DNA of 64,000 nt from a phage: the sequence record PZ445446.1; one strand, 5' to 3'. Shown in pieces: positions 2-51,712 of this stretch (the first letter of the stretch is position 1; every line of letters starts with the position of its first letter). The position numbers were made by a program, and so were the translations under genes. The notes under the pieces are model-generated. The model searched no databases. It saw nothing but the letters and a program-made list of their open reading frames with translations, and was not told the DNA's origin.

Positions 2-316
2 GGATATACTTTGCTATCATGCGCCTGCTCAGACACCTACGTTGTGTGGACACTTATCCGGAAGGAAGAGCCTGCAGGGATCTTGGTGCCAAACCCTAAG
101 ATTATTAGTGAGGTGGATGACTATTCCCAGGACGGCCTGCCAGAAGGCTGGGAAGTATGGGAAGGTGGTGAAAACCCTGCACCAGGTAAGTGGGTAAAAT
201 ATAAACTACGTAGTGGTGCACAGTACGCTGACTACTCTGATGACCTAGACTGGAGTCATTCTTCACCAGGATCGTCTGCAAGTTCATATGATATCGTTGC
301 TTTTCAGGAAGAATAA
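2..316 (+). CDS. hypothetical protein, probably 5'-truncated at window edge
   Basis: Frame open from window start; track ORF 11..316; no motif recognised. Confidence 0.35.
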   Translation, partial: GYTLLSCACSDTYVVWTLIRKEEPAGILVPNPKIISEVDDYSQDGLPEGWEVWEGGENPAPGKWVKYKLRSGAQYADYSDDLDWSHSSPGSSASSYDIVAFQEE

Positions 317-328
317 GGAGATAGTGTT

Positions 329-811
329 ATGTCAGATTTTATGTGGAAAGTAGGTTACGCAGCTCCTGAAATGTGTGAGGCTTGCTTTGTGAAAATAGGC
401 CGCGAGGATATCGACAAAGTGATCCTTAAGTTTCGTGATGTGGCTGTGATCGGCAACCGAGTGCTTAAGCACTTAAAGAATCTGAAGCTCACTAAAAAGA
501 AATTCTTCGGGCTTTTCGAAGAGAAAGTTGATGCTTGGACCCATTGCATTCAGGAAGCTAAATCTCACTACAGTGCTATCGTTACCCCAGAACGGGTAGC
601 CAAGATGGAAGGACTCATCAACAGCACAGAGTTTGAGTGTCTGAAAGCTGCACTCGATAGTTATCCGAAATGCCTCAAGCACTTGGACAAGTATGTAGAA
701 AAGGATGGGGAAATGTATCTCACCCTGAACGCATATTATGAGATGCAAGAAATTTTAAATTTAGATTTGACATTGGTATCCACCGAGTATACAATAGGTA
801 TCCGGGTTTAA
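329..811 (+). CDS. hypothetical protein
   Basis: ORF track 160 aa; GGAG-type RBS upstream of ATG; no motif recognised. Confidence 0.55.
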   Translation: MSDFMWKVGYAAPEMCEACFVKIGREDIDKVILKFRDVAVIGNRVLKHLKNLKLTKKKFFGLFEEKVDAWTHCIQEAKSHYSAIVTPERVAKMEGLINSTEFECLKAALDSYPKCLKHLDKYVEKDGEMYLTLNAYYEMQEILNLDLTLVSTEYTIGIRV

Positions 812-817
812 CACTAG

Positions 818-845
818 GCCCTGCCCGAAAGGGTGGGGCTTTTTG
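818..845 (+). terminator. intrinsic terminator (GCCCTGCCC-GAAA-GGGTGGGGC + T-run)
   Basis: 9-bp stem with GAAA tetraloop followed by TTTTT; same sequence recurs at 10964. Confidence 0.6.
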
Positions 846-862
846 CATTAGGAGACAGCAAA

Positions 863-1627
863 TTGAAATTTATCTACAAAGAACACTACCACAAAGGTGT
901 TGTGTGGAGCCTATTTGACGGATCTGGTGGTGCAGTCATTGACTGGGCAAAAGCTGGATATCTGTGCCTGTGCTTTAACGCAAAAGGTGCTGACCACGGC
1001 AGTTATGCAGAGGTGATCACCGATCATCCAAATATTCACTATGTAGATTATTGGATTGATCCATGGTTCCCTCAGGAAACTTTCTGCATGTACCCAGCTC
1101 CGGACTTTGTTCTTGCATTTCCTCCGTGCACCCACTTAGCGGTGTCAGGTGCTGCACACTTTAAGAAGAAGCTGGCTAAGGACCCGTTGATCCAGATTAA
1201 TGCTGTAAAGGATGCTCGGGTTGCAGAAGAGTTGGGAGAGATTTACGATTGCCCGTGGCATGTAGAGAATCCTGTGGGTGTTATGTCCACACTGTGGCGC
1301 AAACCTGATTACCGTTTTCACCCTTCTGACTATGGCGGGTATTTACCGGAGGATGATGTAAACCCCTGGTTTCCTGAATTTATAGCTCCACGTGATGCCT
1401 ATCCAAAAATAACTTGCGGCTGGATAGGTAATGGATTTATAATCCCGGCCACAAAACCTGTCCCGCAAATAGTTGACGCGGTTAGCGGGTATTCCATGCA
1501 ACACGCCAAGCTGGGTGGAAAGAGTGCAAGAACGAAGATGATCCGAAGCCTCACACCACGTGGCTGGGCAAAAGCCGTATTCTTAGCAAACGAGCCTGTA
1601 GTAAGGAGCAGAATTAATGGGAAGTAA
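863..1627 (+). CDS. DNA (cytosine-5)-methyltransferase-like
   Basis: Motifs LFDGSGG (motif I-like), FPPCTHLAVSG (PC catalytic motif IV-like), HVENPVG (ENV motif VI-like), GNG near C-terminus; start moved to in-frame TTG 863 after terminator and GGAGA RBS (track start 833 lies inside hairpin). Confidence 0.55.
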   Translation: MKFIYKEHYHKGVVWSLFDGSGGAVIDWAKAGYLCLCFNAKGADHGSYAEVITDHPNIHYVDYWIDPWFPQETFCMYPAPDFVLAFPPCTHLAVSGAAHFKKKLAKDPLIQINAVKDARVAEELGEIYDCPWHVENPVGVMSTLWRKPDYRFHPSDYGGYLPEDDVNPWFPEFIAPRDAYPKITCGWIGNGFIIPATKPVPQIVDAVSGYSMQHAKLGGKSARTKMIRSLTPRGWAKAVFLANEPVVRSRINGK

Positions 1628-3695
1628 ATTTATGGCATCTGCATACAACCGTTTCGGTGAGCCAAACCCGAAAGCAACTAAGTATAAAAGTGGGGGAAGT
1701 GTGAAACGAGACTATCGTGATGAAAAAGAGGTTGAAACTGTAGAGACTGTTTTAGAAAATACTAAAATTGTCCCTGTTCCACAACAAAATATCGGTCTGA
1801 TGGCTGCACAATATTTTGGTGTGCGATCAGCATTGTCTCAAGAAGACGGTGTGACAGTTACTGCAACATATTTCCCATATTACGACCGCTACGGAAATCT
1901 GTCAGGTTTCAAAAAGCGTGACTGGACGATTCCTAAAGAGCAAAGGGGCCATTTCTCAGTTGTTGGCATAGTAAAGGCTAACTCTCAGATGTTTGGGCAA
2001 AAGCTGTGTGCATCTTCCAACAACCGTAAGCAAATTAACGTTTGTGAGGGGGAAGGTGATGTTATTGCAGCATGGCAGGCTGCATATCAGATACAAGTAA
2101 AAGGGATTCTCACCAACGCTAAAGCCCCGGCAAAGGTGAAGCAGTGGGCTAAAGAGGTCCAGGACGGGATCGATGCAGTTATCAACGGTGGTGATCTGGC
2201 AGGAAAACCCTGCCTACCTTTTGTTGGAATTAACTGTGGATGTGCAAACGCAGTAGATACTTTTGCAAACAATGAGAAGTTTATCCGTAGCTATGGAACA
2301 GTTGTGCTGGCAATGGATAACGATGCAGCTAACGAGGTAGAGAAGCAAAAACACGTCATTAAAGGTGTCGAGGCCACGCACAATATCGCAGCATTTTTGA
2401 TGGCTGATAACGTTTACCACGTAGAATACCCTGGTGAAGTAAACGACCCTGACGGTGTAAAAGATATCCGAGACATGCTGAAGGCTAAAAAGCTGGAAGA
2501 TATTGTCAACATGTTCCGGCATCCTGTTAAATATGTGCCTGATGCTGTGTCGGATTTAGAAGACTTCTCTATCGAGTCTTTGCGGAAAAAGACTTCCAAC
2601 GGGGTAGATATCAGCGCAGAGTTCCCAAAACTGCAAAAAATGCTAAAAGGCTTGCACAAAGGTACACTCGTAATGCTTACAGGCCCATCAGGTGGCGGTA
2701 AAACAACCGTAGCTAAAAAACTGGAACACTGTATTGCAAGATACCTAATGGACCCGACATGCCCGAAGGCTGATGACTATGAAGAGGATGATCGTCTATG
2801 TATGATCCATCTTGAGGAGGACCCAGAGGAAGCAATTAACTCCTTGTATGCAAACCAGTTAGGGTTTGATGTTAAAGAGTTTGTTGAAGATCCTAGCCAG
2901 TTTTTAACTGATCAAGAACACGCAGAGATTCATCAGTCATGGGCAAAAGCTGGAAAAATCAAAGTGTTCAAACATTTCGGGTCTATTCCGGTGGATGAGT
3001 TGATTACCAAGCTTAAGCAAATGGTTTGCCTGTACCATTGCCGTTATATTGTGCTGGATCACCTGTCCATGGTAATTTCAGGGCTTAATGTTAAGGATGA
3101 GCGAAAAGAACTGGACATGGCTATGACCCAACTGGCTGCGTTTTGTAAGCAGTTTAATGTGTTTATCTTGGTGATCGCTCACCTCAAACGTACAGAGATT
3201 GTGCCTCCTAAGGACAAGGATGGTAACCCGTTACCTTTCTGGTATCCTGTGCGAAAAGAGAATTTGCGAGGATCGGCTGGGCTTGAACAGTTGAGTTGGG
3301 TAGTTATAGGTGTCGAGGCCGAAGAAATGGTGGATCGTTCTCGTGGGCGTGTCCGTCTGGTAGGTCTTAAAAACCGTCCAGCAAAAACTTTAGGTATTGC
3401 TGACACTTTAGTTATGGACCCGCACACAGGTAAGTTCCATGATGCCAGTAACTGGTACTGGGACAAAGAAATGCAAATGTTTACAGACGGAGAAGGTGGG
3501 GAGGTTGTTTGGAGACCTCAGGCTATGTTTGAGGATCAGGAGCATGCAGTTGTAGAAACACCTATGGGCAAGGTTGTGGCTGATAAGGTTGTAACTCCTA
3601 CTGTTAAGCCTGTTGACACGCAGGAAGACCTCCAGTACGATGATCCGTCCTCTGACCATGTTCCTGGTTTTGAGGATGATGAAACACCTTTTTAA
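1617..3695 (+). CDS. T7 gp4-like primase-helicase (TOPRIM primase + DnaB-like helicase)
   Basis: TOPRIM-like EGEGD and AMDNDAANE motifs; Walker A GPSGGGKTT; AAGGAG RBS; acidic C-terminus ...DDETPF. Confidence 0.8.
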   Translation: MGSKFMASAYNRFGEPNPKATKYKSGGSVKRDYRDEKEVETVETVLENTKIVPVPQQNIGLMAAQYFGVRSALSQEDGVTVTATYFPYYDRYGNLSGFKKRDWTIPKEQRGHFSVVGIVKANSQMFGQKLCASSNNRKQINVCEGEGDVIAAWQAAYQIQVKGILTNAKAPAKVKQWAKEVQDGIDAVINGGDLAGKPCLPFVGINCGCANAVDTFANNEKFIRSYGTVVLAMDNDAANEVEKQKHVIKGVEATHNIAAFLMADNVYHVEYPGEVNDPDGVKDIRDMLKAKKLEDIVNMFRHPVKYVPDAVSDLEDFSIESLRKKTSNGVDISAEFPKLQKMLKGLHKGTLVMLTGPSGGGKTTVAKKLEHCIARYLMDPTCPKADDYEEDDRLCMIHLEEDPEEAINSLYANQLGFDVKEFVEDPSQFLTDQEHAEIHQSWAKAGKIKVFKHFGSIPVDELITKLKQMVCLYHCRYIVLDHLSMVISGLNVKDERKELDMAMTQLAAFCKQFNVFILVIAHLKRTEIVPPKDKDGNPLPFWYPVRKENLRGSAGLEQLSWVVIGVEAEEMVDRSRGRVRLVGLKNRPAKTLGIADTLVMDPHTGKFHDASNWYWDKEMQMFTDGEGGEVVWRPQAMFEDQEHAVVETPMGKVVADKVVTPTVKPVDTQEDLQYDDPSSDHVPGFEDDETPF

Positions 3696-15509: not shown

Positions 15510-15646
15510 ATGGAAGGTAATATGATCCCCCTGGTTGAAAAGGCTATGGCGGGAGCGTTGGAACATAAAGAAGAGTACGAAAAAATGATGGTTAACCTGG
15601 CAGGGGCGGCGGCTGGAGAATTCTACCCAAAAAATAATTTTAACTA
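15510..15646 (+). CDS. small hypothetical protein (45 aa)
   Basis: GAGGAGG RBS 6 nt before ATG; below track cutoff; read by eye. Confidence 0.35.
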
Positions 15647-15650
15647 ATGG

Positions 15651-41886: not shown

Positions 41887-42675
41887 TTACTCGGAAACAG
41901 GGGTCCAAATATGATTTGCACGATCCTCAATAAGATTGAGTGCGATCTGACGACCCAACCCAGAACGAACGACATCGTCTGGACTATCAAAGCTGATCAT
42001 TCCAACCTCAGGATCTGGATGACGAGTAAAGAAATCCGTCACCCATGCAAGGCCAGATTTACCAGGGATGTCACGTTGGCTATTATCACCCATAATTACA
42101 AGGGTGGCTTGATCAGAGATCCTTGTGATAATTGACAACATTTCTTCAGGGTTAGTTTGCTGTGCCTCGTCAATCAGGACAAAGCATCGCTCATCGAAAC
42201 TACGACCACGAATGCTTTCAACTTCACAAATCTCGATACGGCTGTTCTGACCGTCTCCCAGCATTGCGGCAAAAGCACCTTTGCCAACACGACGACAAAT
42301 CGTGTCCATCATGCTTCGAAGATAGGGCCACAGTTTCTGCATTGCATTTCCAGGTTTAAATCCTGAAGTCTTTCCTGTCTGAACGTAAGGACGTGCAACA
42401 ATAATCTTATCAATCTCGTTCTTACGCAGAAGATCACCTGCATATGCAGATGCCATGAATGTCTTACCGGATCCAAACACACCGTTTACAATAATAATCT
42501 TACGTGACCCTAGATAATCAAGATACTTTTGCTGCTTCTTATTCATTGGTCGGAGAGCTGGAGCGGTGTGCTCTCTTTCGTCAGCAAATTTCTCAGCAGC
42601 CTTACGCAGGCGATCAGATTTGCGAGCCTCTCTAGCTTCATCACGCATGCGTTTTGTTTCTTTAGCTCGACCCAT
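41887..42675 (-). CDS. phoH: PhoH-like ATPase
   Basis: Walker A GVFGSGKTF; Walker B-like VLIDEAQ; size and motif spacing typical of phage PhoH. Confidence 0.7.
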   Translation of the reverse strand: MGRAKETKRMRDEAREARKSDRLRKAAEKFADEREHTAPALRPMNKKQQKYLDYLGSRKIIIVNGVFGSGKTFMASAYAGDLLRKNEIDKIIVARPYVQTGKTSGFKPGNAMQKLWPYLRSMMDTICRRVGKGAFAAMLGDGQNSRIEICEVESIRGRSFDERCFVLIDEAQQTNPEEMLSIITRISDQATLVIMGDNSQRDIPGKSGLAWVTDFFTRHPDPEVGMISFDSPDDVVRSGLGRQIALNLIEDRANHIWTPVSE

Positions 42676-42713: not shown

Positions 42714-43064
42714 TTACTGCAACAGTTTTTCAATAGCCGCTTCCATGCTGCTTGCAACAGCCTGAACTCGGATATTCATCTCTTCTTGGTGGATCAGCTC
42801 CTTAAGCTCTTTAATGGTAAATTCTTTAGAGAAACCTTCCACCATAATCTTGTGCAAGGCTTCTTGCGTGTCTACTTGCAAGAACTTTTCCAGTTTGTTG
42901 GCAGAGGCTTCTAAATCAGCCCGAATACGAGGGTCATCTGTGCGATTCAGCATTAGGCGTAAGCCATCAAGATTAGTAGAAATAGCATCTGCATGTTGAG
43001 TAACTAACCGTGGCAAAATGAGATCTACAAACTTATTAGCCAAATCGATACGTTCTTGTGTCAC
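42714..43064 (-). CDS. hypothetical protein
   Basis: ORF track 116 aa; apparent GTG start overlapping upstream stop. Confidence 0.45.
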   Translation of the reverse strand: MTQERIDLANKFVDLILPRLVTQHADAISTNLDGLRLMLNRTDDPRIRADLEASANKLEKFLQVDTQEALHKIMVEGFSKEFTIKELKELIHQEEMNIRVQAVASSMEAAIEKLLQ

Positions 43065-43174
43065 TGTTGCACCCCCTCTTCATCTTCATGATGTTTCTTT
43101 TCACGCTTGTGTTTTTTCTTAAGCTCAAGCGCAATCTCTTTCTTGTACGCCTTCTTCAAGGCTTTTTTAGCCAT
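43061..43174 (-). CDS. small lysine-rich protein (37 aa)
   Basis: GAGGAGGT RBS; MAKKALKKAYKKEIALELKKKHKREKK...; stop overlaps next start; read by eye. Confidence 0.35.
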   Translation of the reverse strand: MAKKALKKAYKKEIALELKKKHKREKKHHEDEEGVQQ

Positions 43175-43236
43175 TTGGCACCTCCTCTGCTTTCATTACG
43201 GCAATTATAACCAACTCAACAAAGCTTTGTCAACAA

Positions 43237-43710
43237 CTAGTCTACCTGAACCCAACCGCCTGATACTTTTTTAAACATTCTTTGGTTATCACTGCCTCGG
43301 AACGGTTTCTTGGTTGGTAAATCTTTTACATACTTACCGTCAATGATGATATCAGCCAGTTTAAGAACATCACTAGAGATATGGTCAAATGTGAACCCAG
43401 TATATACAAGAATAGTTTTCTTGTCACCAAATTTTTCCTTAATTTTCTCCATCAGGCTAATAATATCTGGCTCATTATAGTATGCTAAGGGTTCTCCACC
43501 CAGTAGAGAGATACCGCACACAGACGGGTTATCTAAATCTGACAAGATTTTTTGCAAGTCTTCTTCAGTGAACTTCCTCCCCTTATCTTTTGACCAAAAT
43601 GCCTGATTAAAGCAACCAGGGCAAGCGTGTGGGCACCCAGATACCCACAAGGCAGTTCTAATACCTGGTCCTTCGGTGTAAGATATTTCTGTGTATCCAG
43701 CAATGTTCAT
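43237..43710 (-). CDS. nrdG: anaerobic ribonucleotide reductase activating protein (radical SAM)
   Basis: CPHACPGC (CxxxCxxC) cluster near N-terminus; immediately downstream of nrdD. Confidence 0.75.
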   Translation of the reverse strand: MNIAGYTEISYTEGPGIRTALWVSGCPHACPGCFNQAFWSKDKGRKFTEEDLQKILSDLDNPSVCGISLLGGEPLAYYNEPDIISLMEKIKEKFGDKKTILVYTGFTFDHISSDVLKLADIIIDGKYVKDLPTKKPFRGSDNQRMFKKVSGGWVQVD

Positions 43711-43823
43711 AGATACTCCGCATCACATTTAGGGCAATGCCAAATAAAATCGTCTAGTGCCTTGCACCAACGAAGATTACAACTACAGCCGCACTTGCAA
43801 ATTTTATAAATACCTGATGACAT
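43707..43823 (-). CDS. small Cys-rich zinc-ribbon-like protein (38 aa)
   Basis: AGGAGGT RBS 5 nt before ATG; CKCGCSC...WC...CPKC; ATGA overlap with nrdG start; read by eye. Confidence 0.45.
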   Translation of the reverse strand: MSSGIYKICKCGCSCNLRWCKALDDFIWHCPKCDAEYL

Positions 43824-43886
43824 ACTGCACCTCCTAGCTCACTGTGTGTCAATAATATGCCACATCCTTGTGGCTTTTGTCAAGAA

Positions 43887-46010
43887 TCAGCAACCACAAC
43901 TTCCGTAGTGCTTAACTCGCTCGATAACTTCCGCTTGCTTACCTTTATTGTAAGGACGGGAGTTAGGACTGGAAAGGTATCCAGACACACGTCGAATTAC
44001 ACTGATCGTTCCCTCTTCATGGTTTCCACACTCTGGGCATACAAAGCCTTTAGCTGTTGCACTGAACTCACCAGAGAAACCACACTTGAGACATTTATCC
44101 ACAGGCTGGTTAATACCAAAATACATAATGTGTTTATACCCGAAGTCAACAAGAGCCTCTAAAGCATCCAGGTTGTTTTTCAGGTTAGGTGTTTCTACGT
44201 ATCCGATGTTGCCACCAGAGGAGATCATAGCAAAACCTTCCTCATACTCCCACTTATCAAAAGGAGAGCTATTTATCCATACTGGCTGATGGAAACTGTT
44301 GGTGAGATATTCATGCTCGTGCTTCAACACTTCCGGATATTCACGATCCAGACAGGTTGCAGCTTTATAGCATAGACTCTCAGAAGGAGTGCCGTACAAG
44401 CTAAATGCTAGTCTACTTTCCTTCTTGTATCGCTCACAAGCATCTCTCATGTGCTGAAGGATTCCAAGAGCTAAAGCCTTGTCACCCTCTCTGCCCAAAA
44501 TCTGACAGGTTTCATACACACCGATATACCCAATACTGATGGAAGCGTACCCGTCATAGAAGAGTTTATCAATACTCTCTTCAGGATCCAGGCGAGCAAG
44601 AGCGCCTTCACACCACATGATGGGGTTCTGCCCTGCCTTTGTTCCTTTTAGACGATTAACCCTTACAAGGTGAGCCTCGTATGCAAGATCCAAGTATTCG
44701 TCAAGAACTGCAAAGAAATCAACACCTTCCGTCTTGGCTTTTGCCGCAATCATTGGCAGGTTAAGGCTAACAACGCCTAAGTTAAATCTGCCAAGGTATT
44801 TCTCCTCGCCTGTTTCCAAGTCATTGTATTTGCTAAGAAAACTCCTGCAACCCATGCTAGTTACTTTGCCATCTGTCGAGCCTGTCACTTTTCTATTTAG
44901 TGGTACAGATACGAAGTCAGGATAGATACGTTCTGCACAGCATTCCAGAGCTAATCGTTTCAAATCATAGTTAGGATCCCCAGGGTTCATGTTGACACCC
45001 TCTTCCAGGAAGAACAGCACTTTAGGGAACACAGGTGTGATACGTTCTTCACCAAGACCCATTTTGTGGACTTTCAGGTAGTTTTTGGTAATCATTCTAC
45101 CAAAGACCGAGGTATCCAGTCCTAAACTCAATGTGATGAATGGAGTTTGCCCGTTGACAGAAGTTAACGTGTTGATTTGATAGAGCAAAGTCTGCATGCT
45201 GTCAAATACGTCTTTATCTGTCATTTGCATTGCAACAGTTTCAGCATCCGGCAACCAATGTTCCTGGCAAAATTTAAGGTTCTTCTCATAGGTTGCTTCA
45301 GCATACTGTGCCAGATAATGATCAATATGGCTCATAGTCTGACCACCATATTGAGCACTAGCTACCGCACTAGAGATTTGGCTAAGGATTGTTGTTGCAA
45401 CCCCTATTGACTTCGGCTTGCTGACATGGGCGTTACCAATGTTGAATCCGTTTTCCAACATATCTGGATAATTTACCAAACAACAGTTTGTTAACGGACT
45501 GATCAAGTAGTCAAGATCATGCACATGGATGAATCCTTTATTGTGCTCTTCGGAGACACGGTCTGGCAGGATCTGTGTTGATGCAAGGTGTTTGCTAAGA
45601 ATACCTGCAAGCAGGTCGCGATGAGTGTGTACATGATTAGTAGGCTTATTTGCGTTTTCTTTTGTAAATTCATCACAAGTTCGATCCAAGAAGCCACTAA
45701 TATCTGCAAGCAGTTTTCCACCTGCCTCTCTGTTATTATCTCTTGTCTGTCTATACTGGATGTATTCTCTGGCTGCACATTTTAAACCCATATCCATAAG
45801 AGCATCTTCAACAAGGATATGGATATTTTTTACAGAGATCGTGCACTGGTCGGTTGGTAGATTGTTAGCAACAACTTCATTAACCGCGCAGGCGATCCGG
45901 TAAGCTTCTTCTTCAGTATGTCCAGACTCAAGTAAGGCGGACTCTGCCGCCTTGATCACCTTAATTCCGTTATAGAACTCTTCTCTACCGTCCCGTTTTA
46001 CAACTTTCAC
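43887..46010 (-). CDS. nrdD: anaerobic ribonucleoside-triphosphate reductase
   Basis: N-terminal ATP-cone-like; C-terminal CLKCG...CPECG zinc site and glycyl radical-like RVSGY; 707 aa. Confidence 0.8.
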   Translation of the reverse strand: MKVVKRDGREEFYNGIKVIKAAESALLESGHTEEEAYRIACAVNEVVANNLPTDQCTISVKNIHILVEDALMDMGLKCAAREYIQYRQTRDNNREAGGKLLADISGFLDRTCDEFTKENANKPTNHVHTHRDLLAGILSKHLASTQILPDRVSEEHNKGFIHVHDLDYLISPLTNCCLVNYPDMLENGFNIGNAHVSKPKSIGVATTILSQISSAVASAQYGGQTMSHIDHYLAQYAEATYEKNLKFCQEHWLPDAETVAMQMTDKDVFDSMQTLLYQINTLTSVNGQTPFITLSLGLDTSVFGRMITKNYLKVHKMGLGEERITPVFPKVLFFLEEGVNMNPGDPNYDLKRLALECCAERIYPDFVSVPLNRKVTGSTDGKVTSMGCRSFLSKYNDLETGEEKYLGRFNLGVVSLNLPMIAAKAKTEGVDFFAVLDEYLDLAYEAHLVRVNRLKGTKAGQNPIMWCEGALARLDPEESIDKLFYDGYASISIGYIGVYETCQILGREGDKALALGILQHMRDACERYKKESRLAFSLYGTPSESLCYKAATCLDREYPEVLKHEHEYLTNSFHQPVWINSSPFDKWEYEEGFAMISSGGNIGYVETPNLKNNLDALEALVDFGYKHIMYFGINQPVDKCLKCGFSGEFSATAKGFVCPECGNHEEGTISVIRRVSGYLSSPNSRPYNKGKQAEVIERVKHYGSCGC

Positions 46011-50528: not shown

Positions 50529-51512
50529 TTAACCTTTCACGAAGTGGTTATTAAGCAGTTGTCTGTGCTGAACCCACCCACAAAAGTTGGCAGACCAGAA
50601 TTTACCATCACGGTCTTGATGGGTTACACCTTCCTGCCAAGTACTGATGTCTTGTGTGATTTCACATGAAGACAGGTAGTAGTTTAAACGTTCCATTGCG
50701 TTATCGTGATCCATAGGTGTTGCCTGGTGCTCGTAAGGGCTTGCATGAATACGATCCCCACCAATCAATTTTTTAGCCACACTGTCTGCCTTTTCAAACG
50801 TGCTGTCAATATTTCGATAAGATACTTGTGCACAGCAACTAGCACTGATAGACAGAGCTTCTTTAGTATCGAGAATGCAGAGCTTTCCTTCTGTGTCACG
50901 CACAGCGTAGTTAAACTCTCCGTCCAAATAAACGTGCTCTACATATGGGGTGTGCCATTGACCCGGTTTAAGGATTTCAGGAGTGCTATTCCCAAGAGCC
51001 TCCCACATACAATTAGCCAACATCTGAATCGTAGGATCCGCATCGTGCCAGCAACGGAGGTGGAAAAAATTGTTCCACTCGGTGCTTGTTACAACTGTTT
51101 TCATGCGCTGAAAAGGCTCCACTAAGCGGTTACATACTTGCTTATGGTAACCAGCAAGTGCGAACTTCTCTGCATGCCAAGCGGCGTTTTTTGCAGCCTC
51201 TTTCCAAAACTCTTCAGGAGTTAGCTCCATGTCAGTGTACTCTACACGGATCTTTTGATCGTGTTCCCCACCATCCTCCATTCCTCGCTTATTTACACCG
51301 AAGCGAACTGGCATTGCCGGATTCTCCACAATCTGCTGCAGCATCTTGCCGACAGGCACTGCACGGGAAGACATGGCGTTTCGGCTGAATACTCGATGCG
51401 TCATAAGCTCTGAGTGAATAATTCGAGGATACTCTAGCTCAAAAGTGGTGATGCGCTTACCTTTCTCGGAAATGCTGTCAGCAATGATCTTTGCAGTGCA
51501 CAGTTTTAGCAT
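50529..51512 (-). CDS. thyX: putative flavin-dependent thymidylate synthase (ThyX-like)
   Basis: THRVFSRNAMSSR fits ThyX signature (R/T)HRxxSxxxxSxR; nucleotide-metabolism context. Confidence 0.5.
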   Translation of the reverse strand: MLKLCTAKIIADSISEKGKRITTFELEYPRIIHSELMTHRVFSRNAMSSRAVPVGKMLQQIVENPAMPVRFGVNKRGMEDGGEHDQKIRVEYTDMELTPEEFWKEAAKNAAWHAEKFALAGYHKQVCNRLVEPFQRMKTVVTSTEWNNFFHLRCWHDADPTIQMLANCMWEALGNSTPEILKPGQWHTPYVEHVYLDGEFNYAVRDTEGKLCILDTKEALSISASCCAQVSYRNIDSTFEKADSVAKKLIGGDRIHASPYEHQATPMDHDNAMERLNYYLSSCEITQDISTWQEGVTHQDRDGKFWSANFCGWVQHRQLLNNHFVKG

Positions 51513-51712
51513 TATTTAGCTCTCCTTGTTTTAATTTTGGAAATTTCGTCTGGGTTTATATTGGCCTTAAATGCAAGGTATCTGTTAAACATATCAGAGC
51601 ACATATCTTGGGTGATCCTGGAGGCATACACTAGCTTACCTCCTAGATCATACACCTCTAGCCAGTCACCATATCTGACTACAGGATCGCCACCTTTAGA
51701 ACATCTGACCAT
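51512..51712 (-). CDS. small hypothetical protein
   Basis: ORF track 66 aa. Confidence 0.45.
   Translation of the reverse strand: MVRCSKGGDPVVRYGDWLEVYDLGGKLVYASRITQDMCSDMFNRYLAFKANINPDEISKIKTRRAK

Follow-up and report, generated by a model that had tools for sequence, protein, structure and literature searches.

Two conserved small genes beside nrdG in an rV5-like Escherichia coli phage: a probable zinc-ribbon mini-protein that looks independent of the anaerobic ribonucleotide reductase, and a lysine-rich peptide of the adjoining operon

Two very short open reading frames (ORFs) lie on either side of nrdG in the phage DNA analysed here, and they raise the questions of whether they are genes at all and, for the one rich in cysteine, whether its product serves the class III (anaerobic) ribonucleotide reductase (RNR) whose genes surround it. 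The window, by which we mean the whole stretch of 64,000 nucleotides (sequence record PZ445446.1), is that of an rV5-like E. coli phage (Vequintavirus) and is 100% identical to slur16/slur12 at this locus. A preliminary description presented the two frames as unannotated and translationally coupled to nrdG and its neighbour, and suggested that the Cys-rich peptide might partner the anaerobic reductase system as a zinc ribbon. The analysis reported here indicates that both frames are genuine small protein genes of rV5-like phages, their expression being deduced from selection, and that the Cys ORF looks like a free-standing zinc-ribbon mini-protein rather than a dedicated RNR partner. The features concerned, all on one strand and given in the order in which they are read, are as follows.

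43887..46010, minus strand: nrdD, large subunit of class III (anaerobic) RNR, 707 aa (ORF list and translation)
43859..43874, minus strand: hairpin GCCACA-AGGA-TGTGGC, directly past the nrdD stop (consensus scan)
43829..43835, minus strand: Shine-Dalgarno (SD) sequence AGGAGGT of the Cys ORF, 5 nt 5' of the ATG (direct reading)
43707..43823, minus strand: Cys-rich micro-gene, 38 aa with 7 Cys, MSSGIYKICKCGCSCNLRWCKALDDFIWHCPKCDAEYL (direct reading; PHROG 20137)
43237..43710, minus strand: nrdG, radical-SAM activase of class III RNR, 157 aa (Pfam and PHROG 626)
43204..43233, minus strand: sigma-70 promoter TTGACA-18-TATAAT of the Lys-ORF/ORF116/PhoH unit (12/12 consensus match)
43180..43187, minus strand: SD sequence GAGGAGGT of the Lys ORF, 5 nt 5' of the ATG (direct reading; conserved)
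43061..43174, minus strand: Lys-rich micro-gene, 37 aa, MAKKALKKAYKKEIALELKKKHKREKKHHEDEEGVQQ (direct reading; PHROG 7670)
42714..43064, minus strand: ORF116, conserved hypothetical protein, 116 aa, GTG start (PHROG 7650)
41887..42675, minus strand: PhoH-like ATPase, 3' gene of the Lys-ORF unit (relatives' annotation)

The translated NrdD carries a C-terminal CxxC..CxxC zinc site and a glycyl-radical motif region; relatives' annotations also bear the nrdD label, and the homologue in the related lineage L008 matches Pfam NRDD and Gly_radical. NrdG matches Pfam Fer4_12 (1e-42) and Radical_SAM as well as its PHROG, and has a CxxxCxxC motif at GCPHACPGC. The hairpin past nrdD is, judged from its sequence, a putative terminator- or attenuator-like element, and is overlapped by a weak promoter-like site (TTGACA-18-CATATT, 43854..43883, minus strand; consensus scan); lineage L018 keeps the stem 3' of nrdD with changed outer pairs (GAGCACAAGGATGTGCTC), and hairpins rich in GC and with a T tail stand at the same position in L008 and L009. 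The Cys ORF opens with ATG at 43821..43823, and its TGA overlaps the ATG of nrdG (ATGA, 43707..43710), as the TGA of the Lys ORF overlaps the GTG of ORF116 (GTGA, 43061..43064); such stop/start overlaps on one strand are likewise found in relatives. On the minus strand, both frames are thus as first described, the Cys ORF with its 38 aa, AGGAGGT and ATGA overlap, and the Lys ORF with its 37 aa, ribosome-binding site and overlap with the next start. Only five candidate ORFs of 20-65 aa in the window have the full AGGAGGT, and the Cys and Lys ORFs are two of these.

Neither frame is in fact unannotated. Records that enter both as hypothetical proteins include those of slur12 and of the BASEL phage EduardKellenberger, and the exact 38-aa Cys peptide is present in NCBI and UniRef (CUL03106.1 of slur12; A0AAE8AYV3_9CAUD, 'Uncharacterized protein, Vequintavirus'). 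Among the PHROG profiles, the Cys ORF matches that of PHROG 20137 with an E of 4.7e-30 (residues 1-38 on profile 1-38 of 38), and the Lys ORF that of PHROG 7670 with an E of 2e-20 (residues 1-37 on profile 1-37 of 46). Both micro-ORFs are accordingly already known from several public annotations and PHROGs, and literature searches found no paper on either. Annotation is partial in Murica, Gotham and rV5: the Lys ORF is an annotated CDS in Murica and Gotham, as it is in slur12 and EduardKellenberger, and is ORF118 of rV5; the Cys ORF is without annotation in Murica and Gotham, Murica places a terminator inside it, and the rV5 authors picked another frame there (ORF114), which is closed in the window. 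For the quality of annotation, the conserved 38-aa frame should supplant both the ORF114 frame of rV5 and the 'terminator' of Murica. Two names that have become attached to the micro-ORFs, 'ribonucleotide reductase' and 'minor capsid protein', appear to be propagation artefacts. The first of these is the label of phrog_20137, whose sequence is the same as the Cys peptide without difference; it appears to have arisen by neighbourhood or name propagation; the peptide is unlike NrdD and NrdG and also occurs in a phage that has neither. The profile phrog_7670, a family itself of unknown function, matches the Lys ORF, again without any difference.

That the two frames are genes is argued by their conservation in related phages, the check proposed at the outset, in which the frames proved to be kept. 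By tblastn, at least 80% of the 38-aa peptide was aligned in 120 of 121 phage records, and the frame is open in all 21 copies of the Cys ORF that were read directly (20 fetched loci and the window). Alma is the only frameshifted record; in it nrdG too has gained 1 nt and the Lys ORF has lost 1 nt, a pattern that points to sequence errors; the Alma frameshifts were considered as a refutation of coding and rejected, since the nrdG of that record is itself frameshifted. Between lineages, synonymous sites in the Cys ORF are near saturation (pS 0.6-0.9) and pN/pS is 0.05-0.15; in the Lys ORF, 14 of the 18 variable sites fall at codon position 3. Both ORFs are under protein-level purifying selection, and this selection in relatives, together with the rarity of the full AGGAGGT, makes them more than chance open frames. 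The lineages L008, L012 and L018 keep both ORFs with the same overlaps and neighbours, at identities of only 52% for NrdG, 51% for PhoH and 35% for ORF116. The SD sequence of the Cys ORF is kept in the Vequintavirus loci, with single-base variants in some (AGGAGGT/C, TGAGGT), and reads TAGGAGA in L008, L009 and L012. The seven conserved Cys form the pattern CxCxCxC-x4-C-x9-CxxC and almost every variant seen retains them; C20R occurs in one variant, of metagenomic origin. A profile search of 1.84 billion representatives yielded no remote homologues of the Cys peptide, only the family's own two clusters being matched; a scan with a degenerate pattern recovered no copy from 185,579 bacterial and archaeal genomes, and only a handful from IMG/VR and metagenomes. 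The idea that the peptide is a fragment of neighbouring homing-endonuclease zinc fingers was also considered and rejected, as BLASTP matched only CPEC tetrapeptides.

As to what the Cys peptide is, the zinc-ribbon part of the preliminary description stands as plausible, on the CxC/CxxC and CPxC knuckles and on AF2 models whose Foldseek matches have non-significant E values. The model of the 38-aa window form (pLDDT 55) was too poor for use, and that of a 54-aa homologue has a core at pLDDT 70-79. Against the PDB, the top Foldseek matches of the latter are overwhelmingly zinc ribbons or zinc-finger modules, among them the NUDIX N-terminal ribbon 3cng, Rpb9 and ZifS; the best-ranked mostly superpose at 0.9-1.2 A rmsd over ~33 columns with probability up to 1.0, all at a non-significant E of at least 0.14. 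By sequence, PADLOC, Pfam and NCBIfam offer no family for either the Cys or the Lys peptide, the 38-aa Cys form having no Pfam or NCBIfam match, and a PDB sequence search with the Cys peptide gave non-significant zinc-motif matches only. Weak, motif-level matches were to Zn_ribbon_NUD, eL43 and PolD zinc modules, and for a 53-aa form the best-scoring curated model was Zn_ribbon_NUD, whose cut-off of 24.8 bits lies above the 17.7 bits obtained. CP[KE]C is kept without exception as the second knuckle, and the first reads CKC in the window form and CK[DH]C in the forms of 41 aa and 53/54 aa. Taken with the models, the peptide is probably a 7-Cys zinc-ribbon mini-protein, although homology to zinc-ribbon families is unproven. 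Its predicted Zn ligands would likely be C9/C11 and C30/C33, and the conserved C13, C15 and C20 could serve in a second metal site or in dimerisation.

The other part of the proposal, that the peptide is a partner of the anaerobic reductase, fares less well. In its strongest form, the peptide would be a dedicated class III RNR accessory made stoichiometrically with NrdG by way of the ATGA overlap, either as a rubredoxin- or Dph3-like centre that gives the [4Fe-4S] cluster of NrdG its electrons or iron, or as an NrdD-binding factor; we regard this as unlikely. It draws support from gene order: wherever flanks are available for a Vequintavirus-like lineage, the Cys ORF lies directly after nrdD, the one exception being L009, in which a homing-endonuclease-like gene is upstream on a 2.3-kb contig. 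The overlap with nrdG is present in the window and in L008, L009, L011, L012, L013, L015 and L017 (three of five architectures), and hence in both the window type and the L008/L009 type, whose NrdG proteins are only 52-55% identical. The CxxCG ... CPxC knuckles of the 53-aa variants are also of rubredoxin style, and a precedent by analogy may be offered by Dph3 with the radical-SAM enzyme Dph1-Dph2 (PMC8251694). The position after nrdD and the overlaps with nrdG fit a functional tie to RNR as well as they fit inherited synteny.

Several lines of evidence argue against such a dedicated role. Where both genes are present, they are not always adjacent: in rV5, L014, L016 and L018 the stop of the Cys ORF is TAA and one or two further ORFs come after it, so that in rV5 and L018 it is retained while uncoupled from nrdG. 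The peptide also does not covary with NrdG, its core being almost invariant (86-92% identical) against three NrdG allele types that are 48-55% identical to one another. Nor is it general among phages with nrdD and nrdG: it occurs in 121 phage records as compared with 2236 for NrdG, leaving thousands of other nrdG-bearing records in which no homologue was detected. At the loci inspected in Phapecoctavirus, Felixounavirus and Pseudotevenvirus, neither the Cys ORF nor an analogous micro-ORF lies 5' of nrdG; in Phapecoctavirus nrdD overlaps nrdG directly, and in the Felixounavirus phiWec177 nrdG begins 35 nt past the upstream gene. Finally, Pfam rubredoxin and zf-CSL do not match the peptide, even at E up to 10.

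A further case is that of the podovirus ACG-C91 (Vectrevirus), where the Cys peptide recurs upstream of DNA ligase and where neither nrdD nor nrdG is found by annotation or by tblastn (E > 0.01). This copy is 77% identical over the 35 aa aligned by tblastn, is under purifying selection (pN/pS 0.12 over a 28-codon core), and overlaps the ligase start with its stop (TGA/ATGAATAT). What ACG-C91 holds is the Cys ORF by itself, with exact boundaries at the ATG and at TGA/ATGAATAT, and the same pre-ligase slot is occupied in K1E by a different CxxC..CxxC micro-ORF and in vB_EcoP_B by an unrelated 57-aa ORF. Read from these boundaries and slots, the comparison shows the Cys ORF to behave as a self-contained, exchangeable cassette that has been transferred between unrelated phages. 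This is a small evolutionary point in its own right, an exact-ORF zinc-ribbon cassette having moved between an E. coli myovirus and a podovirus at stop/start overlaps.

The E. coli that ACG-C91 infects encodes an NrdDG itself, and for this reason the case is not strictly against an RNR-directed role. By analogy, one can conceive of the 7-Cys protein as a third, hitherto unrecognised component of phage class III RNR, a metal centre like rubredoxin or Dph3 by which the [4Fe-4S] cluster of NrdG would be reduced or repaired, that of the host NrdG included in phages without RNR genes such as ACG-C91; we think this improbable, even more so than an accessory role dedicated to the phage enzyme. If it were true, RNR activation would be independent of host flavodoxin, and only if the peptide serves NrdG does it bear on the source of electrons or iron for the activases during infection. 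Nothing found here requires a tie of the Cys peptide to NrdG or NrdD, and most likely its activity is independent of the phage class III RNR. The peptide is probably a small adaptor that binds protein or nucleic acid, such as phages carry in variable slots.

For the window, the free-standing Cys ORF can be pictured as sitting at the ancestral nrdD/nrdG junction, where it would have taken over the upstream place in the translational coupling of nrdG, and ribosomes ending at its TGA could reinitiate at the overlapping ATG. We infer this coupling from the overlap, and the preliminary description is borne out to that extent; as a general property of the gene, coupling to nrdG does not hold, given the TAA and the extra small ORFs of rV5 and L018.

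The overlaps invite the further suggestion that both ORFs are translated leaders only, which feed ribosomes to nrdG and ORF116 or open their starts and whose peptides have no function. Such an explanation would account for the 4-nt stop/start overlaps, for an SD of nrdG that is merely GGAG and for the GTG start of ORF116, and it accords with what most of the inspected relatives show, namely an nrdG start that overlaps the end of the ORF upstream, be it nrdD, the Cys ORF or rV5 ORF116; in L018 the start is overlapped only by an uncalled 19-codon frame, read by eye. We nonetheless consider it very improbable, because the amino acids are strongly conserved while synonymous sites approach saturation, because all seven Cys are kept, and because the Cys ORF persists both where it is uncoupled from nrdG (rV5 and L018) and after transfer into another phage family. 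The nrdG start is also not masked by significant RNA structure, folding of the Cys-ORF/nrdG junction showing none beyond that of shuffles (z = -0.13); an RBS-masking hairpin, along with the internal terminator of Murica, was dropped on the same grounds. That the frames are open by chance, the conserved signals being promoters, terminators or untranslated-region elements, might be read from the Murica and Gotham annotations, from the frame choice of the rV5 authors and from a weak terminator-like hairpin at 43754..43770 (consensus scan), but it is scarcely credible and already close to refuted, the substitutions being codon-periodic and overwhelmingly synonymous, the alternative rV5 frame closed in the window, the RNA fold not significant, and strong SD sites present at the correct spacing in all lineages.

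The Lys ORF, as a small protein gene, has a different context from that of the Cys ORF. The original grouping of both around nrdG holds for the Cys ORF of the window and does not hold for the Lys ORF, which stands behind its own promoter. This element (43204..43233) separates it from nrdG, is conserved across the loci compared, is annotated as P118 in rV5 and is also predicted in Gotham; given such a perfect TTGACA-18-TATAAT, we take the Lys ORF to be the first cistron of a separate putative operon composed of the Lys ORF, ORF116 and the PhoH-like ATPase. In L008, L012 and L018 its place is taken by a 41-aa homologue, and all homologues found are from within this phage group; tblastn with the Lys peptide gave no match, presumably through low-complexity filtering. 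ORF116 matches PHROG 7650 (E 2.5e-57) and has no Pfam family above cut-off; its L008 homologue, of 133 aa, is 35% identical at the same position, and the L008 homologue of the ATPase matches Pfam PhoH. The N-terminal part, or body, of the Lys peptide is basic and its tail acidic, and this highly charged product would probably be helical. Through the GTGA overlap it would be made in step with ORF116, and for this reason it most plausibly either partners ORF116 or binds nucleic acid. As they stand, these are two ordinary small phage genes of little wider consequence.

Comparison with known systems places the Cys peptide among several small Cys-knuckle proteins. Dph3, a small CSL zinc-finger protein, is an electron and iron donor to the radical-SAM enzyme Dph1-Dph2, and Dph3/Kti11 is a small Cys4-knuckle protein (CxC ... 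CxxC) that works with a radical-SAM enzyme (PMC8251694). The Cys ORF may be likened to this case, being a small Cys-knuckle frame that runs into the start of nrdG, the gene of a radical-SAM activase; with zf-CSL and rubredoxin unmatched in Pfam, the likeness to Dph3/Kti11 and to rubredoxin is functional and analogical only. Closer in genetic setting is the 38-aa zinc-ribbon micro-ORF of K1E (MTCPNCGSEETEHVVMSDTYHFYFCHSCDTTIEEEEAV), which takes exactly the slot 5' of ligase that the Cys ORF has in ACG-C91 and resembles it in length class, in the shared upstream RBS and ATG, in the TGA/ATGAATAT overlap with ligase and in its Cys knuckles. Sequence similarity between the two is undetectable, however, and the K1E peptide, a CPxCG ribbon of the canonical 4-Cys type, weakly matches dozens of Pfam Zn-ribbon models, whereas the window peptide does not. 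In fold, the predicted core resembles the N-terminal ribbon of NUDIX/NADH pyrophosphatase (3cng; Pfam Zn_ribbon_NUD) and the Rpb9/C11 ribbons, which are likewise of ~33 residues, and such modules would share with it two Cys knuckles around a beta-hairpin or sheet as well as a second knuckle of the form hydrophobic-W-x-C-P-x-C. Zinc-ribbon modules have four conserved Cys, whereas the Cys peptide has seven, with a first knuckle of CxC in the window form. Like the Cys peptide, Thermus ZifS (8yoz) and the archaeal CPxCG mu-proteins (8q5b) are stand-alone micro-proteins.

Every gene relevant to the two micro-ORFs lies on the minus strand, in the order nrdA, nrdB, a glutaredoxin-like ORF, nrdD, a Cys-rich micro-ORF (the Cys ORF), nrdG, a Lys-rich micro-ORF (the Lys ORF), the gene for a 116-aa hypothetical protein (ORF116), and the gene for a PhoH-like ATPase. 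In order of transcription, the features are:

43887..46010, minus: nrdD, a continuous 707-aa ORF
43859..43874, minus: hairpin 3' of the nrdD stop, overlapping a weak TTGACA-18-CATATT promoter-like site with an upstream TG
43829..43835, minus: AGGAGGT, 5 nt 5' of the Cys ORF ATG
43707..43823, minus: Cys ORF, 38 codons, MSSGIYKICKCGCSCNLRWCKALDDFIWHCPKCDAEYL
43237..43710, minus: nrdG, whose start shares ATGA with the Cys ORF TGA
43204..43233, minus: promoter TTGACA-18-TATAAT, a 12/12 consensus match, P118 in the rV5 annotation
43180..43187, minus: GAGGAGGT, 5 nt 5' of the Lys ORF ATG
43061..43174, minus: Lys ORF, 37 codons, MAKKALKKAYKKEIALELKKKHKREKKHHEDEEGVQQ
42714..43064, minus: ORF116, 116 aa, whose GTG start shares GTGA with the Lys ORF TGA
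41887..42675, minus: PhoH-like ATPase, the gene after ORF116

Read on the minus strand, these features bear out the anatomy claimed for both micro-ORFs in the preliminary description, including ribosome-binding motifs, codon counts, and overlaps with the following starts. In the whole window, only five ORF candidates of 20-65 codons have a full AGGAGGT, and the Cys and Lys ORFs are two of the five. The same full motif is found upstream of micro-ORFs at 15510..15647 (plus strand, 45 aa from ATG) and 51512..51631 (minus strand, 39 aa from GTG). Escherichia phages slur16 and slur12 match the 1.3-kb region surrounding the micro-ORFs at 100% identity, and ~90 other rV5-like phages (genus Vequintavirus) match it at 97-99.9%. 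Nineteen records named 'Campylobacter phage' also match this E. coli Vequintavirus region, among them MG065635, MG065653 and MG065659 at 97-99.8% identity, and the host label or isolate purity of these records looks doubtful.

Both micro-ORFs are real genes. We compared the Cys ORF with 20 further loci drawn from GenBank phages, IMG/VR, metagenomes and Logan assemblies. Across a 28-codon core represented by 12 distinct nucleotide versions, pN/pS between lineages was 0.05-0.15, with synonymous divergence of up to 0.6-0.9, near saturation; in tblastn, 120 of 121 phage records aligned over 80% or more of the 38-aa peptide. Seven distinct Lys ORF versions from Vequintavirus vary at 18 sites, 14 of them at codon position 3. 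A distant lineage, consisting of three 136-140-kb contigs (L008, L012 and L018) absent from the phage collection, shares 52%, 51% and 35% protein identity with the window in NrdG, PhoH and ORF116, respectively, and retains both micro-ORFs at the same positions, as a 41-54-aa Cys ORF and a 41-aa Lys ORF homologue; the overlaps are the same, apart from that of the L018 Cys ORF, which ends in TAA. Frameshifted copies were found in phage Alma only (OV101294, 1501..2700), where three single-base indels within 1.2 kb each break a conserved frame: one in the Cys ORF, a 1-nt insertion that truncates nrdG, and the loss of 1 nt from a homopolymer A-run within the Lys ORF. Because nrdG and the Lys ORF are broken in the same 1.2 kb, the Alma frameshifts are probably sequence or assembly errors. 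The frameshifts or stops in relatives that the preliminary description held to count against its ORFs are thus confined to this one doubtful record.

The ORFs had also been described as unannotated, which does not hold for public data: both are catalogued there, as hypothetical proteins and as PHROG families. They are CDSs in slur12 (CUL03106.1, CUL03104.1) and in BASEL phage EduardKellenberger, the Lys ORF is ORF118 of rV5, and NCBI and UniRef list the exact Cys peptide as an uncharacterised protein of Vequintavirus. Over their whole lengths, the Cys ORF matches phrog_20137 (E 4.7e-30) and the Lys ORF phrog_7670 (E 2e-20). Annotation is nevertheless uneven. The Cys ORF is omitted in Murica and Gotham, and Murica has a 'terminator' annotated within it (728..751); rV5 (DQ832317) has ORF114 (1436..1663) annotated in a frame other than that of the conserved Cys ORF (1501..1617), a frame that is closed in the window; and several records label these micro-ORFs 'ribonucleotide reductase' or 'minor capsid protein'. 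The ORF114 frame, the terminator and both labels look like annotation or propagation errors. The slur12 record also lists nrdD as a partial 'nrdD_1', though the window ORF is continuous. The products are of familiar kinds, a likely zinc-ribbon micro-protein for the Cys ORF and a small charged peptide for the Lys ORF.

Translational coupling of the micro-ORFs to nrdG and its neighbour, as first proposed, stands in part: the ATGA and GTGA overlaps are present, whereas dependence of nrdG and ORF116 translation on the ORFs upstream is presumptive. The SD sequence of nrdG itself is GGAG only, and in most relatives inspected the nrdG start overlaps the end of whichever ORF precedes it. The one frame that overlaps this start in L018 is an uncalled 19-codon one, read by eye, and the nrdG start of Felixounavirus phiWec177 lies 35 nt beyond the gene that precedes it. 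Across the Cys ORF/nrdG junction, no RNA structure was detected beyond shuffled controls (z = -0.13). The hairpin at 43859..43874, which may attenuate read-through from nrdD, is kept in L018 with compensatory outer-stem changes and is replaced by T-tailed GC hairpins in L008 and L009. The Lys ORF is unconnected with nrdG; with the consensus promoter standing between them, it is the first cistron of a separate transcription unit that includes ORF116 and PhoH. The Lys peptide has no Pfam, NCBIfam or PADLOC match, and the 41-aa homologue, used as query in a word-indexed search, returned its close relatives only. Its basic N-terminal two-thirds and acidic tail, taken with the conserved ORF116 overlap 5' of the PhoH-like ATPase gene, suggest a helical, charge-bipolar peptide produced together with ORF116; binding to ORF116 or nucleic acid would be a guess.

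The further suggestion that the Cys peptide is a partner of the anaerobic (class III) ribonucleotide reductase (RNR) is unsupported by comparative context. By analogy with Dph3 or rubredoxin, the peptide might be a helper of the activase NrdG, although we consider this improbable. Such a helper would fit the position of the Cys ORF, which, wherever flanks are available, directly follows nrdD in all Vequintavirus-like lineages but L009 (a 2.3-kb contig with a DUF723/T5orf172 homing-endonuclease-like gene immediately 5', 45..1259) and overlaps the nrdG start in two nrdG allele backgrounds, and Dph3 is a precedent for a helper role (PMC8251694). However, the Cys ORF terminates with TAA in rV5, L014, L016 and L018, where a 34-aa ORF, joined in rV5 by a 78-aa ORF (PHROG 3249), separates it from a different nrdG allele. 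The three nrdG allele types (window copy; rV5, 2002..2475; L008, 8159..8632; L018, 6316..6789) are 48-55% identical to each other in protein sequence, whereas the Cys core is 86-92% identical across them and tracks the nrdD C-terminus (87%). In the rV5 type, the interval that separates the Cys ORF from promoter P118 has undergone mosaic replacement. Also against a helper, nrdD overlaps nrdG directly in the related Phapecoctavirus tuntematon, no such micro-ORF occurs at the Felixounavirus and Pseudotevenvirus loci inspected, and phage records with NrdG number 2236, those with the Cys peptide 121. Within Vequintavirus, the window and rV5 types have near-identical backbones (ORF116 99%, Lys ORF 97%, Cys ORF 92%), and the third nrdG type was seen in no lineage other than the more distant one of L008/L009/L012. 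In L008 (4687..7936) and L018 (2862..5948), nrdD lies in two pieces, split by an HNH (HNH_3) endonuclease gene that in L008 also has a NUMOD1 domain.

The same peptide is carried by the SP6-like podovirus vB_EcoP_ACG-C91 (77% identity over the 35 aa aligned by tblastn; pN/pS 0.12 and pS 0.59 in the 28-codon core). Its ORF (L005, 3998..4108), unannotated in GenBank and RefSeq, lies between gp24 (DUF3310/'nucleotide kinase') and an ATP-dependent DNA ligase gene, where the overlap is likewise ATGA. Between the two phage families, homology runs exactly from ATG to TGA/ATGAATAT, and therefore the ORF alone was transferred. The identical slot holds an unrelated canonical CxxC..CxxC 38-aa ribbon ORF in K1E (673..789) and an unrelated 57-aa ORF in vB_EcoP_B (673..846); the Vectrevirus gp24-ligase interval is a hypervariable micro-gene slot with three alternative ORFs. 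Neither annotation nor tblastn revealed nrdD or nrdG in the ACG-C91 genome, and this retention without phage nrdDG, like the ORF-only transfer and the variable slot, argues against a NrdG helper, though not decisively, as the E. coli host has its own NrdDG. The simplest reading is insertion: nrdD and nrdG would originally have been coupled directly, a self-contained zinc-ribbon micro-gene would have entered their junction in the Vequintavirus lineage, and the Cys ORF would now hold the upstream position in nrdG coupling, with a function independent of the phage class III RNR.

Seven Cys residues (C9, C11, C13, C15, C20, C30 and C33) are kept across all lineages, one C20R variant excepted, as are the motifs NLRW, LDD and IW-x-CP-x-C; position 29 alternates between H and Y. 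The C20R variant is metagenomic and was seen on three contigs. A 70-aa metagenomic variant departs after CPKCD and has a tail with another CxxC (…YCDNCGQ…). These two variants (entries P0029, a 523-nt ENA contig, and P0023) come from short or single contigs and are of uncertain reliability. In longer forms of the peptide, the N-terminus is extended by a tail rich in Lys and Glu, and the first knuckle reads CK[DH]C rather than CKC. The Cys peptide matched no curated family in Pfam, NCBIfam or PADLOC, profile searching against 1.84 billion cluster representatives recovered nothing beyond the two clusters of the family itself, and no copy was found among 185,579 prokaryotic genomes. AlphaFold2 performed poorly on the 38-aa form (pLDDT 55) and predicted a beta-rich core for the 54-aa form (pLDDT 70-79). 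In Foldseek searches of the PDB, the best-ranked matches of the 54-aa model were overwhelmingly zinc ribbons or zinc-finger modules, with E-values of at least 0.14, a level to be expected of a domain this small. Sub-threshold sequence matches to Zn_ribbon_NUD, eL43 ('IWHCPKC') and PolD ('LLWVCPRCNAEY') point in the same direction. The Cys peptide thus likely adopts a zinc-ribbon fold, its 54-aa model superposing at ~1.1 Å rmsd over 33 columns on the NUDIX N-terminal ribbon 3cng, Rpb9, C11 and the small zinc-finger protein ZifS.
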